Source: Minisyncoccota bacterium
GTDB taxonomy: Bacteria; Patescibacteriota; Minisyncoccia; Phycocordibacterales; UBA9973
Direction: 5' to 3'
Assembly (NCBI GenBank): GCA_035491955.1
Contig: DATJJU010000012.1
Span: 1-59,075, forward strand
DNA: 59,075 nucleotides
Below the pieces are notes generated by a model, which saw nothing but the letters and a program-made list of their open reading frames with translations, was not told the DNA's origin and made no database searches. This document shows positions 1,567 through 23,026 of the stretch, piece after piece. Numbering within the stretch: position 1 is the first letter of the stretch; the number at the start of each line of letters is the position of its first letter. The position numbers and the translations under genes were made by a program.

Positions 1567-1571
1567 ATTTG

Positions 1572-1951
1572 TGGAGATGGGGATATTGAAATCCCGTGTA
1601 TATAGAGTGAGGAAGCAAATCTACATGCGTAGTAGTGCTTTGATGTTAAGGAATAATCTCGAAGCAATACGAAACAATTATTCCCGAACCTCTACTTATT
1701 TGGTGCAGTAGGGAGGTATCTACTGCTGCCTATCCTGATGCATGTTGCCGCGAACACTCTATCAGAAATCAAGTGTGCGACACCTAGTCGGCGTAAATTA
1801 CGCGAAGCTAGGAACCGCGCCTGCCATAAAAGGAGACGCGACCTTAGATGAACTGTTTGCAGTTATCTGTTGAACGGCTGTTGACGGTGATCACGTTCAT
1901 ACCCGGTATGCATGCAGCCTCGAAGCTCTATATATCGATGCGTGCATCCCC
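1572..1951 (-). ncRNA. ssrA: tmRNA (SsrA), one-piece
   Basis: On the minus strand the 5' GGGGATG pairs with the 3' CATCTCC, including a G3:U wobble (Ala identity). A T-arm GGGAT-TTCAAT-ATCCC and discriminator A follow. The conserved GCATGTAG motif is present. An internal tag ORF (1860 down to 1798) reads GCA AAC ... TTC GCG TAA, giving ANSSSKVASPFMAGAVPSFA. The gene lies directly downstream of smpB. Confidence 0.85.
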
Positions 1952-13789: not shown

Positions 13790-13973
13790 AAAAGTAGTCT
13801 ACCATTTTTTATTCATTACAACGTAAACATGTATGGGTTTGGACTTTAGGAACAGGTTTAGGCACATAGTTTTGTATAAAAAAATGGTATCCCGATACAA
13901 TTAAAAGAAGTATTAAAAGTATTAAAATTGTGTTTCTCATAGTTTCCGAACATCTCGTTCTTGGGCGAGTTTG

Positions 13974-14060
13974 CGGAGGATGTGGGATTCGAACCCACGG
14001 ACCCGATTAAAGGTCGACGGTTTAGTAAACCGTTGATTTCAACCACTCATCCAATCCTCC
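13974..14060 (-). tRNA. Class II (long variable arm) Ser-type tRNA whose anticodon reads ACT (ACU)
   Basis: Minus strand: acceptor GGAGGAT/ATCCTCC, discriminator G, 3-bp D stem GAT/ATC with an 11-nt loop, anticodon arm ACGGT-TTACTAA-ACCGT, long variable arm CGACCTTTAATCGGGTCC, and T arm GTGGG-TTCGAAT-CCCAC. The body is clearly Ser-like. The A34 anticodon is unusual and needs software confirmation. Confidence 0.7.
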
Positions 14061-16658: not shown

Positions 16659-17744
16659 ATGAAGAAATTTGGTTTTAAATCACTTTTGGCAACGGTGGGG
16701 GGCGTGCTTGTAGCGGTGCTATTTACCGTGCAGGCGTCTGCTATGATCCCGACATTGTCCTTATCAAATAACGGTTTTGGCACGATGCAGGTCAGTGTGT
16801 ATGGCGATGCTAATGCACCGATCATTTTGGACTACTACTCAGGCGGACAGCTTCTCGGGGCAGGTATCATTGGCTACACCAACTACAGTGGCTACTATTC
16901 AGGCACCCTTAACCAGAGTACTTACTACAGTATTCCAAATGGCGCACAGGTCTTGATCTACGTGAATGGTCAGCAGTCAAACACTGTTACCTGGCAGGGT
17001 AATGGCTCTTCTTACAACAATGGCTATCCGTATAACAACTACGGCACCATGACATTCAGTCAGAGCAATGTAAATCTTACTGTTGGTCAGTCTCAAACTA
17101 TTTACATCAATGGCACATACAACAATGGCTACAGCAATCAGTATTATGTGTCATCAAACCTTTCAAACGGTGTAGTGAGCGCGACATTGAGCGGTAATGC
17201 ATTGACCTTGTACGGACAGAATAATGGTTCAGCCAATATCACTGTCTGCTCAGGTACAGGCAACTACTACAATTCAAACAGTGGCTGCGGCACTGTGTAT
17301 GTAACAGTAAGTGGATACAACTACAACAATAACTATTACAATCAGTACCCATACAACTACTACAATAATTACAACTATAACTACGGATACAACACTCTTA
17401 GTGTAAGCAATAACAATGTGCAGGTTACCACTGGCAACAGTGCCACAGTAACTGTCTACGGTAATAGCAACAATTATTACAATGGCTACTATAACAATGG
17501 TAATTACTACATCTCAAATACTGGCTCAGGCATTGCCTATGCAACCATAAACGGCAGTACTGTCACGATCTACGGCCAGTCAGCTGGTACCAGCACTATC
17601 ACTGTCTGTCAGACAGGCGGCGGATGCGCAACCATTAATGTGACTGTTACATCTCCATACATCTACAATGGAGGATACAACTATCCGTACAACAATGGCA
17701 ATTGGTACTGGAGCCCAACCTATAATTGCTGGATGCAGCGATAG
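16659..17744 (+). CDS. Secreted Asn/Tyr/Gly-rich protein with two Ig-like (Big_2-like) modules
   Basis: Signal peptide, then two modules ending ...G(S/T)(A/S).ITVC..G(G/N)..CGT/CAT(V/I).VTV(S/T), separated by runs such as YNYNNNYYNQYPYNYYNNYNYNYGYN. Confidence 0.6.
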   Translation: MKKFGFKSLLATVGGVLVAVLFTVQASAMIPTLSLSNNGFGTMQVSVYGDANAPIILDYYSGGQLLGAGIIGYTNYSGYYSGTLNQSTYYSIPNGAQVLIYVNGQQSNTVTWQGNGSSYNNGYPYNNYGTMTFSQSNVNLTVGQSQTIYINGTYNNGYSNQYYVSSNLSNGVVSATLSGNALTLYGQNNGSANITVCSGTGNYYNSNSGCGTVYVTVSGYNYNNNYYNQYPYNYYNNYNYNYGYNTLSVSNNNVQVTTGNSATVTVYGNSNNYYNGYYNNGNYYISNTGSGIAYATINGSTVTIYGQSAGTSTITVCQTGGGCATINVTVTSPYIYNGGYNYPYNNGNWYWSPTYNCWMQR

Positions 17745-18343: not shown

Positions 18344-19153
18344 TTACTTTTCAAACTTTTTCTCAACTTGCTCTGCAACCCATTTCCCAAATGTATCTAA
18401 AAAACCAGCGAGCTTGTTCACATCATCGGTCGGATTAATAGCGAGCTCAAGCGCCATTTTCATATTTTCTTCCTGTTCAGGATAATACTTTGAAAAGACT
18501 TCATAAGAAGGGTACAGATCTCGTGTGAAGGCTTGCTCTTTATCCATTACCAAAACGAATCCGGCGCGGATTATTCTTTTCATAACCCAGCGACACCACA
18601 TCTTAATGTCTTCACTGTCTGGATTATTTACTGTTTTTTCCTTTGCTCTTTGAATAATGTTTTCAAGGTTGCGATGAAAATGACTGGCTGTTTCTAAATC
18701 AGCACGGAAAGGAGGAATCTTCTCAGCGAGATCTTCACCGTAAATGCAGGCACTCTGTGTCTTGATGGTAAAACGATCGCCAAAAAACTCATCTTCATCA
18801 AAAACTTCATCGTAAGAAATGAAACCCATTTCGATACCGGTTGAGAAAGCGTATTTTTGTTCAAGTTCTTTTTGAACGCTATCTACCCAAGAACGATCTA
18901 TCTCCTCATATTTTTTAGTAATAACAGCAAAAGTGTCTATATCGGAAATTCCCTCTATCGCTTCGCCACGAGAAACAGTACCACGAACATAAATGCTATG
19001 AATCACGTCGCCTAAATGATCAAGATACGCCTGTTTTATATCCGCAACCGCTTCTTTCCAGGGCGATTTGAGCTTATCTACACCGGACTCACTAACAATA
19101 AACCCATCTTTGTCAGTTTTGAGCAATCTGCCGATTTTGAGAATTTCAGTCAT
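18344..19153 (-). CDS. Nucleotidyltransferase-domain protein (ANT/AadA-like architecture)
   Basis: Pol-beta-type NTase motif GTVSRGEAIEGISDIDTF, with a helical C-terminal half. Confidence 0.6.
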   Translation of the reverse strand: MTEILKIGRLLKTDKDGFIVSESGVDKLKSPWKEAVADIKQAYLDHLGDVIHSIYVRGTVSRGEAIEGISDIDTFAVITKKYEEIDRSWVDSVQKELEQKYAFSTGIEMGFISYDEVFDEDEFFGDRFTIKTQSACIYGEDLAEKIPPFRADLETASHFHRNLENIIQRAKEKTVNNPDSEDIKMWCRWVMKRIIRAGFVLVMDKEQAFTRDLYPSYEVFSKYYPEQEENMKMALELAINPTDDVNKLAGFLDTFGKWVAEQVEKKFEK

Positions 19154-19226: not shown

Positions 19227-19313
19227 GGAGACGTGTCGGAGTGGTCTAACGTACCTCCTTGCTAAGGAGGCAGGCTGTAAAAGGTCTCAAGGGTTCGAAT
19301 CCCTTCGTCTCCG
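19227..19313 (+). tRNA. tRNA-Ser, anticodon GCT (GCU)
   Basis: Acceptor GGAGACG/CGTCTCC, discriminator G, anticodon arm CCTCC-TTGCTAA-GGAGG, long variable arm, T loop TTCGAAT. Confidence 0.85.
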
Positions 19314-19356
19314 CAGGAACTGACCATTAAATACAATTAACGTATACGAGGTAAGT

Positions 19357-20571
19357 ATGGCATGGGATACAAAAATAGAAGATGGAATAGAAAAGGTGTA
19401 CTTTATCGATGAGGAGACTAAAAAGGAGACTATTGTTTTTGATATTGATAGCAAGAATGAGTTGATAAAATTTTATCCGCGTGAAGAGAAATTTTTCCTA
19501 AAGGAAATTGTATTGAGTGGCTTCAAGGAAGTACCTGAGAATGTAATTGTATATGGAACTTTTAAGGGAGGGTTACTTTATTTTCTGAATGACCGCTTTA
19601 GTGATAAAAAAGTTTTTCACTTTGAAATTTTAAGAGATGGAAAATCTCTAATAACAAATACAAAAAATGGATTAAAAGTCTTACTAGCTTATGATGATGT
19701 GTTGAGTATGGTACAAAAACTTACGTCGATATCTTATGAAGCAAAAATAGAAAGAGGGGAGGAAGTTGATCTTAGTCTTTATAATACTTTCCCTAAATAT
19801 TTTAAAAAAAGTAATGCTGAGAAATCTTCCAGAAATAAAGCTCGTAGACTATTAAGAAATCTCGATATCTCTACTATCCCTCAATTAAAAAACCAAGAGG
19901 CGCAAAAAATCGTCGATTATTTTATTGAACTTATAGAAAAAAGATCTAATAAACAAAGCTTCTTTAATTTAGCAAAACTTAAACTAGATGAAGTTTCTAT
20001 TGAGAATGTTATTCTGAAATTGAAAGATTATATTGAGAATAATGCTAAGGAGTCAGAATGGACAACTTTTTTGATCGAAAATTTATTTGTTATTGATTCG
20101 AAATACATCTATGCGGTTCCTGAAATTAATTTAACTTTAGGGGGTAATCGTCGAGTAGATTTTGGACTTATAGATTCTGATGGTTACCTTGATATCTTCG
20201 AGATTAAAAGACCAAACACAAAGATTTTTGAAACACAACCTGATCACGGTAATTATTTTTGGCACGAACAAGCAGTGCAAGCCATAGTGCAGGCTGAAAA
20301 ATACCTTTATTCGGCGACCAGAAAAGGATCACAGCTCGTCGAAGATCTTCAACGCGAAAGGGGTGTCGAGCTACCATTTAAAGTTATTAGACCACGAGCG
20401 TTTCTGCTTATGGGCTCTTCTTCTCAATTTAAAAATGTAAATATGGTGGATGATTTTCAAGTTTTACGCCGATCCCAAAAGAATATTGAAATTATTTTAT
20501 ACGATGATCTTCTTAAGAGAATACAAAATCAAAAAGGAAAAGTGTTTTTAAGCTCTCAAGAAAGTAGTTAG
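19357..20571 (+). CDS. Shedu-like (DUF4263) PD-(D/E)xK nuclease with a novel N-terminal region
   Basis: The C-terminal half shows ESEWTTFLIENLF, RRVDFGLID (D codon 20158-20160), YLDIFEIKRP (D-x-x-E-x-K at 20191-20208), QAIVQAEKY, RAFLLMGSS and IEIILYDDLL. This order matches the DUF4263/SduA core as I remember it. Confidence 0.6.
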   Translation: MAWDTKIEDGIEKVYFIDEETKKETIVFDIDSKNELIKFYPREEKFFLKEIVLSGFKEVPENVIVYGTFKGGLLYFLNDRFSDKKVFHFEILRDGKSLITNTKNGLKVLLAYDDVLSMVQKLTSISYEAKIERGEEVDLSLYNTFPKYFKKSNAEKSSRNKARRLLRNLDISTIPQLKNQEAQKIVDYFIELIEKRSNKQSFFNLAKLKLDEVSIENVILKLKDYIENNAKESEWTTFLIENLFVIDSKYIYAVPEINLTLGGNRRVDFGLIDSDGYLDIFEIKRPNTKIFETQPDHGNYFWHEQAVQAIVQAEKYLYSATRKGSQLVEDLQRERGVELPFKVIRPRAFLLMGSSSQFKNVNMVDDFQVLRRSQKNIEIILYDDLLKRIQNQKGKVFLSSQESS

Positions 20572-20605: not shown

Positions 20606-21586
20606 ATGAATAAGCAAAAAAATAGGACCGAAGAAATTGTAATGAAGGTACGGGACCTCATCAACGATTCCACAATATCAAAAACAAAGATTTTTTCAAG
20701 AAAAAAGATAGGTGATTGGAGTCAGTTTTTTACAGCGTTAGATACTATTGAAGATACATGTCTTGCTATTACAGCTTTTTGTAAAGATTCGGAAATTTTA
20801 CTAGAAAAGAATCCGTACCTTGTTGTATACGGAATTCTTCAAACACTTTTTGTTCAGCAAGATGCAGTCGATTTTTTAAAAATATCACTTTTTGGAAAAG
20901 ATAAAGGAATTAATTGGAAAGATAAAAAACATCTACCGCTTTGGGAAATTAGACAGATACGTAATGAAACTATAGGTCATCCTGTTAAAACAAAGAAAAA
21001 AGGTTCAGACTCTAAATATGAAAACGATGAAGTCACTTCATGTACCATTGATCGATCCTCAATCTCGAGAGAGGGTTTTAGTTACATTCTCTGGATGAGT
21101 TCCAAAACGCATCATAGAAGTGTAAACTTTAACGAGGTTATAAAATTACAAGATTTTTACCTAAGTGAAGAGCTTAAGATTATAATGAAAGAAATTGAAA
21201 AAGAAGAAAGTGTACACAAGGTAAAATTTAAAGGAGAGAAACTTCTTGATATTTTAAATAAACCATCCCTATATAAAATTAATCTTATTTATGGACTACG
21301 CTGGGAGGACCATTTAGCATGGCCGAGTTTTGACCACTACTATGAAAGGTACAAAAGAATAAGGAATGGTATTGAAAATCGTTATGGGAAATTTGGTGAG
21401 ACATTAAGAATTCCTGGTACAGAAGAAATTGTAAAAAAACTAGACTACATATTTTCAAAAATAGATGGATTTAAAAAAATACAGTTTGATAATTATGAGT
21501 TTGAAGTATATGTAGATGCGCTGGATTCAGGTTTAAAGGAATTGGGAAACCACCTTGAGACAATTGATCAGGAGTTTGAAGTATAA
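20606..21586 (+). CDS. Hypothetical protein with a HEPN-like R-x5-H motif
   Basis: 326 aa, helical. WEIRQIRNETIGHP is encoded at 20951-20983 (R-N-E-T-I-G-H at 20960-20980), preceded by helices (YGILQTLFVQQDAVDFL) as in HEPN bundles. No family recognised with certainty. Confidence 0.45.
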   Translation: MNKQKNRTEEIVMKVRDLINDSTISKTKIFSRKKIGDWSQFFTALDTIEDTCLAITAFCKDSEILLEKNPYLVVYGILQTLFVQQDAVDFLKISLFGKDKGINWKDKKHLPLWEIRQIRNETIGHPVKTKKKGSDSKYENDEVTSCTIDRSSISREGFSYILWMSSKTHHRSVNFNEVIKLQDFYLSEELKIIMKEIEKEESVHKVKFKGEKLLDILNKPSLYKINLIYGLRWEDHLAWPSFDHYYERYKRIRNGIENRYGKFGETLRIPGTEEIVKKLDYIFSKIDGFKKIQFDNYEFEVYVDALDSGLKELGNHLETIDQEFEV

Positions 21587-21628
21587 AAAATAAGATATTA
21601 AGAATAACGTAATTTTTTATAAAACTTT

Positions 21629-23026
21629 ATGAAGATTTCAAAATTAACAATTAAGAACTTTAAAATATTTTCACCCGATGACGAGTTTGTTATTGATGAT
21701 CTAAATGTTCCCGATGGGGTAAATGAAGGTACAGGGCTAAATGTTTTTGTTGGTGAGAATGGAAGTGGTAAAACCTCTCTTCTTGAAGCCATCGCTTTAC
21801 CCCTACTTGAGTATAAAGCAGAGAATTTTTCAATTGAAAATTTTAATGATTTTGAAGAAAAAGTAGAAATAAATATTTTCTCGAAGGATAACTTCACTGT
21901 TGACGGCACAATGCCAAGAAGTTCTTTTGAAGCAAAGGGGTTTTCTTTTGAAGCAGGTGTTAGAGCAAGAGATAGCAAAAACTATTTATCTTCTATTATT
22001 GTGAGTGATCAAAAATTTATTAAATCTGATCCTTCAAAACCAAAAGATGGAAGTCCTGATTTAAGAAGTGCGGTCAATAACCCTTTTAAAGGGAAAAGGT
22101 TTAATGAAAACGATGTTCTATTTTTGGATAAGAATAGATTATTTCAGACACGTTCAGGAAACTTTAATACAACCCGTTTTGATAGGTTGATGGAAGATTT
22201 TAGTTATCAATATTTGAAAAATAACGAAATAACTGATTTAAATGAGGAACTAGGTAAAAAAATAAGAAAAGAAGTTGAAAACGACTTTCTTGATCAAGCA
22301 GTGTCGAAATTTAGAGAAATTTGTGATCACGAAGTCAGGTTAGATTTTTTAGATAATTTAAAGCCATTTAAAGAATCCTTCTTTTCTATTAAAAAGGATA
22401 ACGAACAGCAGATATTAATAAATAACCTCGGTTCTGGGTATGAAATGATATTTTGTTTACTCTACTCGTTCTATCTAGCAAAACAGACTGGGAAAGAGCT
22501 TATAATTTTGATAGATGAACCAGAGCTACATTTGCATCCAGCTTTACAAGAAAAATTCATTCAATTTTTAATTGAATTTTCAAAAGAGGCACAGATTTTT
22601 ATCACTTCCCACTCACCATTAGTAGTTAAACAAGTTTTATTAAATGAAAAAGTAAAAGTAAGAATGCTAAAAAACGGTTCGGAAGTATTGGATATCGGGA
22701 ATAGACTACTTTCGTATTTATCAGCAAATGAAATAAACTATCTTGCTTTTGACTTGCCGACAGAAGAATATCATAATGAGCTTTTTGAAGAGTTAAAAAT
22801 TAAAGATGATGGTGCTCGAGCCACACCTCTTAATTTGAAAGATTTTGATATTTACTTTTTTCAGACTAGTAAGGGAGAACCTGCAAATTATCCATACAAT
22901 GGGGCAAGTAATCAGGTCAGTATCCATACCCACTTGAGGACACAGATACACCACCGAGGAACAGCGGGGCAACCAAATATTACTGATATAAAAAAGTCGA
23001 TTGAAACAATGCGTACATTCTTTTAA
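21629..23026 (+). CDS. SMC/ABC-type (AAA_15/AAA_21-like) ATPase without a recognisable nuclease domain
   Basis: N-terminal KL.IKNFK.F, Walker A GENGSGKT (21752-21775), signature-like LGSGYEM, Walker B ILIDEPELHLHP (~22502-22540), H-loop ITSHSP. The ~130-aa C-terminal extension has no Toprim, HNH or other motif I can see. Confidence 0.7.
   Translation: MKISKLTIKNFKIFSPDDEFVIDDLNVPDGVNEGTGLNVFVGENGSGKTSLLEAIALPLLEYKAENFSIENFNDFEEKVEINIFSKDNFTVDGTMPRSSFEAKGFSFEAGVRARDSKNYLSSIIVSDQKFIKSDPSKPKDGSPDLRSAVNNPFKGKRFNENDVLFLDKNRLFQTRSGNFNTTRFDRLMEDFSYQYLKNNEITDLNEELGKKIRKEVENDFLDQAVSKFREICDHEVRLDFLDNLKPFKESFFSIKKDNEQQILINNLGSGYEMIFCLLYSFYLAKQTGKELIILIDEPELHLHPALQEKFIQFLIEFSKEAQIFITSHSPLVVKQVLLNEKVKVRMLKNGSEVLDIGNRLLSYLSANEINYLAFDLPTEEYHNELFEELKIKDDGARATPLNLKDFDIYFFQTSKGEPANYPYNGASNQVSIHTHLRTQIHHRGTAGQPNITDIKKSIETMRTFF

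Follow-up and report, generated by a model that had tools for sequence, protein, structure and literature searches.

Locus and islet layout

The window analysed here is a stretch of 59,075 nucleotides (nt) from a Minisyncoccota bacterium of the Patescibacteriota (GenBank assembly GCA_035491955.1, contig DATJJU010000012.1), and the thing to be explained in it is a 3.7-kb islet of low GC content that holds three genes beside tRNA-Ser(GCT). These are sduA, encoding a Shedu nuclease, and two genes called here gene 1 and gene 2, the second of which encodes an ATP-binding cassette (ABC) ATPase (Table 1). The GC content is 0.31-0.35 across 19-23 kb versus about 0.41-0.45 on both flanks, and the tRNA gene ends 42 nt before sduA, where GC drops, which suggests that the islet was inserted at the tRNA; no att-like direct repeat was found bounding it and no Rfam RNA inside it. 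All three genes are encoded on one strand and are spaced by 34 nt (sduA to gene 1) and 42 nt (gene 1 to gene 2), no terminator was predicted on their own strand between them, and they are probably co-transcribed in the window.

A sequence-only reading of this locus had described genes 1 and 2 as a two-gene module, in which a protein with a HEPN RNase motif is paired with an effector-less ATPase. Both open reading frames (ORFs) are present exactly as described, and so are the motifs quoted for them: RQIRNETIGHP and GENGSGKT were recovered by translating their sites, and LGSGYEM, ILIDEPELHLHP and TSHSP occur in the translation of the ORF. That neither protein belongs to a named system was also borne out, as neither is assigned to one by Pfam, NCBIfam or PADLOC. 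Two features had been overlooked, namely a conserved Rx4H motif in the C-terminal tail of the ATPase and the Shedu gene directly upstream. The product of the latter matches SduA_C of Pfam at 1.1e-27 (97.6 bits against a cut-off of 27) and the PADLOC SduA model at 2.7e-31.

Table 1. Coordinates of the islet genes, the bordering tRNA and the motifs discussed in the text (window numbering)
Feature	Position	Strand	Basis and remarks
tRNA-Ser(GCT)	19227..19314	+	ARAGORN and Rfam tRNA (53 bits); left edge of the low-GC islet
sduA, Shedu nuclease gene, 404 amino acids, DUF4263	19357..20571	+	First islet gene; outside the span of the sequence-only reading
Gene 1, 326 amino acids	20606..21586	+	ORF; stand-alone HEPN-like protein of a large unannotated family
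Gene-1 motif R116-x2-R119-N120-x3-G124-H125-P126 (Rx5H), RQIRNETIGHP	20951..20983	+	Translation
Gene 2, 465 amino acids, OLD/AAA_15-type ABC ATPase	21629..23026	+	Pfam AAA_15 (2e-29), AAA_21 (5e-26)
Walker A, GENGSGKT	21752..21775	+	G42, E43, N44, G47, K48 and T49 invariant (31 homologues)
Walker B and D-loop, LIILIDEPELHLHP	22502..22540	+	D296, E297, P298, E299, L300, H301, L302, H303 and P304 invariant
ATPase C-terminal domain, residues ~365-465, HEPN-like candidate effector	22721..23023	+	AlphaFold model and conservation
ATPase tail motif H433-T-x2-R437-[N/T]-Q-I-H441-H442 (Rx4H), HTHLRTQIHH in the window	22925..22954	+	Translation

Co-occurrence of gene 1 and the ATPase

The first search for gene 1 returned 82 relatives. 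Scanning a single genome for each species provided 74 loci with flanks of up to 6 kb, and contig look-ups added five more, making 79 in total. In 78 of these loci neither the ATPase nor sduA gave a tblastn match at E<1e-5, and a further locus (L091) was also without the ATPase. This holds for the closest relatives of gene 1, at 61-65% identity (L002, L005, L007, L008, L009, L010 and L091), as well. Conversely, gene 1 is missing from all 13 independent contexts of ATPase relatives, including those of the nearest ones (P0084, 76% identity; P0085, 74%). The pair recurs only in L082, whose sequence is that of the window (100% identity), and a metagenome scan with gene 1 as query likewise returned only L082, the window's own sequence. 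When the immediate neighbours of gene-1 relatives were clustered, 118 singletons resulted, and no Pfam family is found in more than two of the 123 neighbours.

Because gene 1 and the ATPase never co-occur elsewhere, the two-gene module is refuted by the criterion that the sequence-only reading had itself set, the co-occurrence of homologues. Genes 1 and 2 are thus very probably independent of each other, and there is no evidence that ties the three islet genes functionally. The region is therefore best described, with reasonable rather than high confidence, as two independent single-gene defence modules and an upstream Shedu gene stacked in one islet. A pairing of sduA with gene 1 was considered too and was rejected, as no sduA lies near any gene-1 relative.

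The ATPase and its C-terminal tail

The assignment of gene 2 to the AAA_15/21-type ATPases was confirmed by Pfam. Judged from its sequence, the protein holds an intact ABC catalytic set of Walker A, Walker B, signature and H-loop; the signature LGSGYEM, Walker B ILIDEPELHLHP and the H-loop TSHSP are all invariant in 31 homologues. The closest clusters listed, at least 120 in number, are all at least 60% identical to it over 99-100% of the length. Its PADLOC matches are confined to models of ATPase domains (AriA, NsnB, GajA and PtuA), and the plasmid relatives match the Old model of PADLOC best (1e-50), which aligns with residues 2-364, that is, with the head only. Since the Old model covers the head only, the family looks, at the sequence level, like an OLD protein in which Toprim has been replaced by the tail domain.

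As had been stated from the sequence, this extension carries no Toprim, HNH or DUF4435 domain; by Pfam and PADLOC, none of the three was found in the ATPase tail, nor in the remainder of the ATPase, in gene 1 or in the flanking genes. The description of the protein as effector-less is nevertheless doubtful, as the tail bears an invariant Rx4H motif of its own. The tail of about 100 residues is the most conserved part of the ATPase among the 31 homologues, with E379, E380, Y381, H382, N383, E384, F406 and D407 invariant outside the motif and H433, T434, R437, Q439, I440, H441 and H442 invariant within it. Most homologues read HTFIRNQIHH, i.e., R-N-x2-H-H with an Asn after the Arg, and R437, H441, H442 and H382 are retained at whole-protein identities of only 23-27%, in relatives from a Klebsiella plasmid, a Weissella plasmid and E. 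coli. A bare match to Rx4-6H is uninformative, being present in 65% of shuffled versions of gene 1 or the ATPase; it is for this reason the conservation of the motif, and not its presence, that counts.

In the AlphaFold model of residues 350-465 (predicted local distance difference test score, pLDDT, 88.3) the tail consists of three helices, a beta-hairpin, the motif helix and a final helix, so that the motif stands at the end of the penultimate helix with a beta-hairpin insert before it. HEPN domains have been defined by an Rx4-6H motif in which the Arg is followed by a polar residue (N, D or H) (PMC3710099), and the predicted structure of the tail agrees with the description of HEPN in all three of the respects compared, D407 supplying the acidic residue. 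In addition, the Weissella relative weakly matches Ribonuc_2-5A of the KEN/HEPN family (E 0.088) in its motif region. Taken together, motif, conservation and topology lean towards a HEPN-like metal-independent RNase in the tail.

Genomic contexts of the ATPase family

Among ATPase relatives of at least 52% identity, the gene is the last of a restriction-modification (R-M) operon in six of ten contexts, with a gap of -26 to +32 nt to the preceding R-M gene. The six R-M systems are of diverse kinds: a HaeIII endonuclease with a C5 methylase, an NmeDI-like enzyme with a methylase, a type III mod and res pair, AlwI with two methylases, an MmeI-type enzyme and an Eco57I-type enzyme. The remaining contexts are mobile-element settings. 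Stand-alone relatives were found on a Klebsiella plasmid, between two insertion sequence (IS) elements, on a Weissella plasmid, and on an E. coli chromosome by an integrase gene; a scan of viral contigs with the ATPase gave one full-length relative only. The family is hence linked to R-M operons, and a guarding function may be supposed. The small proteins encoded upstream of the ATPase in contexts lacking R-M genes were considered as a possible conserved partner, which was rejected as they are mutually unrelated.

The chromosomal E. coli copy, from strain SCU-316 (L104:3998-5446), encodes a protein of 482 amino acids that keeps FIRNHIHH and carries the PGAP name 'ATP-dependent nuclease'. An integrase gene and a capsid gene flank it, the setting being that of a satellite-like or prophage-like element, and similar DNA occurs in 10 of the 5426 complete genomes of E. 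coli.

The gene-1 family

Gene 1 itself has no Pfam match and no PADLOC match at E<=1, and none of the 120 relatives listed in an annotated search carries a Pfam domain. The family is large, with 2270 clusters at 50% identity in an exhaustive profile search (E<=1e-3), 710 of them at E<=1e-30. Its members are stand-alone proteins of about 315 residues. Across 135 diverse members H125 is invariant, R119, G124 and P126 are each retained in 133 and R116 in 130, and the x5 spacing between R119 and H125 is constant in all 135. N120 occurs in 111 members, with H (8), S (5) and D (3) as alternatives, and the family thus conforms to the HEPN motif as defined above. Further near-invariant residues are D46, D50, Y75, G76, Q79, Q84, Q85 and D86 (the last in 123 of 135), and conserved polar residues outside the motif include Q182, H204, Y223, K227, R259 and D321.

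The AlphaFold model of gene 1 (pLDDT 87.8) contains a three-stranded sheet at residues 143-174, contrary to the earlier view of an all-helical protein. In the model helix 107-122 bears R116 and R119 at its C-terminal end, and the loop that follows it holds G124-H125-P126, a placement which fits the HEPN description in PMC3710099; D86 lies in the preceding helix 70-96, though not in the Ex3[KR] form. The Pfam family matched by most members is HEPN_AbiU2, although this amounts to five of 135 at E<=1, with a best value of 0.0072, and HEPN-like_int is matched by a single member (7.4e-4). That two HEPN families turn up among so few weak matches is suggestive as regards sequence. A PADLOC scan of the 135 relatives yielded four scattered weak matches. 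The proposed HEPN RNase motif of gene 1 has held up as far as the conservation of its R and H residues and their position at a helix end are concerned, whereas a HEPN fold was not recovered by Foldseek. From the motif and the model we infer that the N-terminal helical domain is a HEPN-type metal-independent RNase, a view that we hold with slight preference.

Several close relatives of gene 1 lie directly behind R-M genes, which encode an MvaI/BcnI enzyme with a methylase, a C5 methylase, an EcoRI methylase and a methylase-Mrr fusion, and one on a Marinobacter plasmid is near a SIR2 gene. Two metagenome-assembled genomes of Fibrobacter succinogenes carry a relative inside a type I R-M operon (L056:1603-2544 and L060:5908-6849), a position like that of prrC, where it is flanked by a gene for a 318-amino-acid protein without assigned function (3-nt gap) and by the type I specificity subunit (4-nt overlap). 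C-terminal extensions were seen in two relatives, P0269 (542 amino acids) and P0259 (574 amino acids). That of P0269 has a second R-N-x3-H motif, YRYRNYLIHN, and may form another HEPN-like domain; the PDB yielded no sequence match to either extension.

Comparison with known systems

Fusions of an ABC ATPase with a C-terminal HEPN domain are, according to a survey of HEPN proteins, 'often found in R-M operon' (PMC3710099), and both such fusions beside R-M systems and back-up suicide effectors joined to restriction-like systems belong to an established paradigm (PMC3710099; bioRxiv 10.1101/2024.01.29.577857; PMC12839542). The gene-2 family is like PrrC and RloC in having an N-terminal ABC ATPase and a small C-terminal domain with a conserved Arg/His motif, in the proposed latent RNase that is released upon infection and, as regards PrrC, in the placement of its relatives last in R-M operons. 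It differs in that its head is of the OLD/AAA_15-21 type whereas theirs is Rad50/SbcC-like, and in that the linked systems are of types II, IIG and III whereas those of PrrC and RloC are of type Ic. Sequence homology of gene 2 to PrrC or RloC was not found: neither is among the best 25 of more than 100 PADLOC matches of the window ATPase or of its plasmid relatives. A P2-like prophage of E. coli APEC O1 encodes, between replication endonuclease and portal genes, an RloC-like AAA ATPase of 738 amino acids with a CPFC zinc hook (L105:45933-48149, minus strand), which is probably the APECO1_4465-type ABC-HEPN fusion of the HEPN survey. Compared with this protein the window ATPase is shorter (465 amino acids), has no zinc hook and belongs to a family with HTFIRNQIHH in place of YRYINRGSHSD, and an hhalign comparison of the tail profile with the C-terminal region of the APEC O1 protein gave a probability of 0.2%.

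With the OLD family (P2 Old, GajA of Gabija and AriA of PARIS) the ATPase shares a homologous head, but Toprim is lacking and a domain of about 100 residues with R-N-x2-H-H occupies its position. No partner gene corresponding to AriB of PARIS, GajB of Gabija or PtuB of Septu is present at the locus. PARIS, Gabija, Septu and Menshen were accordingly excluded, as AriB (DUF4435), the Toprim of GajA together with GajB, PtuB (HNH) and NsnA/NsnC, respectively, are missing. Shedu is represented in the islet by the gene at 19357-20571, which passes the SduA_C cut-off and matches the PADLOC model, but it is a single-gene system, and in other loci the relatives of gene 1 and of the ATPase are found without sduA. 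The ATPase family is set apart in this way from the named systems, which are those that the comparison covers; ABC-HEPN groups without a name exist as well, ERFG_01251 among them. What is known already is the principle of combining an ABC ATPase with HEPN; what appears to be new is the variant of an OLD-type ATPase with an R-[N/T]-x2-H-H tail.

Gene 1 is comparable to AbiU2, AbiD/F, AbiJ and ApeA, which are single-gene systems of the abortive infection (Abi) kind with an R-N-x(3-5)-H motif as in gene 1; stand-alone HEPN Abi proteins are often located in or beside R-M operons (PMC3710099). However, no match of a gene-1 member reaches the Pfam gathering score of these families, and the core of gene 1 (DxxxD, YGxLQxxxxQQDA and GHP), its beta-sheet and its long helical C-terminal half are undescribed for them.

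Weighing of the alternatives

It is very unlikely that gene 1 is a HEPN effector and gene 2 an effector-less ABC-ATPase sensor, so that the pair would be PrrC split over two genes. The genes are adjacent on one strand with a short gap, the R/H motif of gene 1 is conserved, and defence systems often pair an ABC ATPase with an effector that has a gene of its own (bioRxiv 10.1101/2024.01.29.577857); yet the families were never found together in the 79 gene-1 loci and 13 ATPase contexts, closest relatives included, the ATPase gene has stand-alone copies on plasmids and between IS elements, and the protein has a highly conserved motif-bearing tail of its own. As the tail bears its own invariant Rx4H, the logic of PrrC is probably kept within gene 2 and not split. 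The tail could also be a histidine-rich metal-binding or docking domain, in which case the ATPase would be an accessory sensor or regulator of an upstream nuclease system (restriction enzymes elsewhere, Shedu or gene 1 in the window). The ATPase is indeed nearly always downstream of nuclease-encoding operons, the tail has four invariant histidines (H382, H433, H441 and H442), and it shows no structural or profile match to HEPN. On the other hand, the upstream partners represent unrelated folds and restriction types, which would be hard for one docking domain to accommodate, stand-alone copies have no nuclease neighbour, and R-N-x2-H-H at a helix end, with Asn after the Arg, fits the HEPN signature; we regard this alternative as unlikely. 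Somewhat more weight, although still well short of an even chance, is given to the view that gene 1 is not a HEPN RNase but a helical sensor of a ligand or nucleic acid, or a regulator, whose conserved Arg and His residues bind the ligand. Such a role would agree with the generic helical bundles that are all Foldseek returns (e.g., the McpN sensor domain, probability 0.87, E 1.0), with the many conserved polar residues outside the motif and with the marginal nature of the Pfam HEPN matches. It is less easily reconciled with a motif that agrees with the HEPN definition in composition, in spacing and in its place at a helix end, with the two different HEPN families among the few weak matches, with R-M and defence genes in the neighbourhoods, and with the one family member that has a further domain fused to it, in which R-N-x3-H occurs again.

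Several results weigh against the reading of two independent modules with HEPN-like RNases. For the tail there is no significant match in Foldseek (PDB), Pfam, PADLOC or PDB profile searches, and the HEPN protein Las1 appears in Foldseek at rank 9 with an E-value of 3.6. The full model of gene 1 gave no match at E<0.3 against PDB and BFVD and no HEPN entry among them, although Foldseek is a weak test of fold here, the query being multi-domain and HEPN folds very divergent. PDB profile searches with both families returned coiled-coil noise only. The HEPN Pfam matches of gene-1 members are far below gathering scores and may or may not cover the R/H motif, and the family consensus has no Pfam match at all, so that AbiU2 is not recovered. 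In hhalign, the gene-1 family and the ATPase tail match with a probability below 1%, as does each family with the C-terminal region of the RloC-like APEC O1 protein. The four invariant histidines of the tail could bind metal instead. No R-M system adjoins the ATPase in the window, the sample of ATPase contexts is small (n=13) and skewed to long contigs, and the common strand, the short gaps of 34 and 42 nt and the lack of a terminator would permit a local functional coupling of the islet genes.

Other features of the window

Beside the islet, a gene at 18344-19153 (minus strand) encodes a protein of 269 amino acids with a nucleotidyltransferase fold and weak matches to CBASS oligonucleotide cyclases and ANT(4') (E 1e-4 to 4e-2); this gene, too, may be defence-related. 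A tRNA-Ser with the unusual anticodon ACT was predicted by ARAGORN at 13973-14060 (minus strand), where Rfam also places a tRNA (57 bits), and a tmRNA is recognized by Rfam at 1569-1951 (minus strand; 77.7 bits, full-length model) that is absent from the ARAGORN output. The gene at 16659-17744 (plus strand) encodes a predicted secreted protein of 361 amino acids, which consists mostly of Asn-, Tyr- and Gly-rich repeats.

Proposed mechanism and implications

The principle of PrrC is that a latent RNase accompanies a restriction system and fires once that system has been disabled. In the mechanism proposed here for gene 2, the ATPase head would keep the C-terminal RNase silent until it senses infection, for which the trigger could be the loss of the accompanying restriction system or a phage anti-restriction factor, and the released tail would cleave host RNA, e.g., tRNA, with the result that the infection is aborted. 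The logic of PrrC and RloC would in this way be held within one polypeptide. Gene 1 may act separately as an Abi-type single-gene RNase, with the beta-sheet and the C-terminal helices as its sensor or regulator.

In its complete form the proposal is tentative and less likely than not to hold: that an OLD-type ABC ATPase, with Toprim swapped for a divergent HEPN RNase, has given rise in this family to a functional analogue of PrrC that had not been described before and that guards R-M systems of many classes (type II, IIG and III) by suicide, being especially common in Patescibacteria and scattered on enterobacterial plasmids and satellites; and that gene 1 represents a further unannotated HEPN clade of more than 2000 clusters. 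Should the tail prove to be an RNase, the principle of PrrC would extend beyond type I systems and Rad50-like ATPases; the latent-RNase guard would be met again on a scaffold of OLD type that follows type II, IIG and III systems, including those in the small genomes of the candidate phyla radiation. Two sizeable families, now designated as 'hypothetical' and as 'AAA family ATPase' or 'ATP-dependent nuclease', would also gain an annotation. Independently of this, the islet illustrates that adjacency within a defence islet is not evidence for a multi-gene system. As relatives of the ATPase exist in E. coli and Klebsiella, the idea can be tested in standard hosts.

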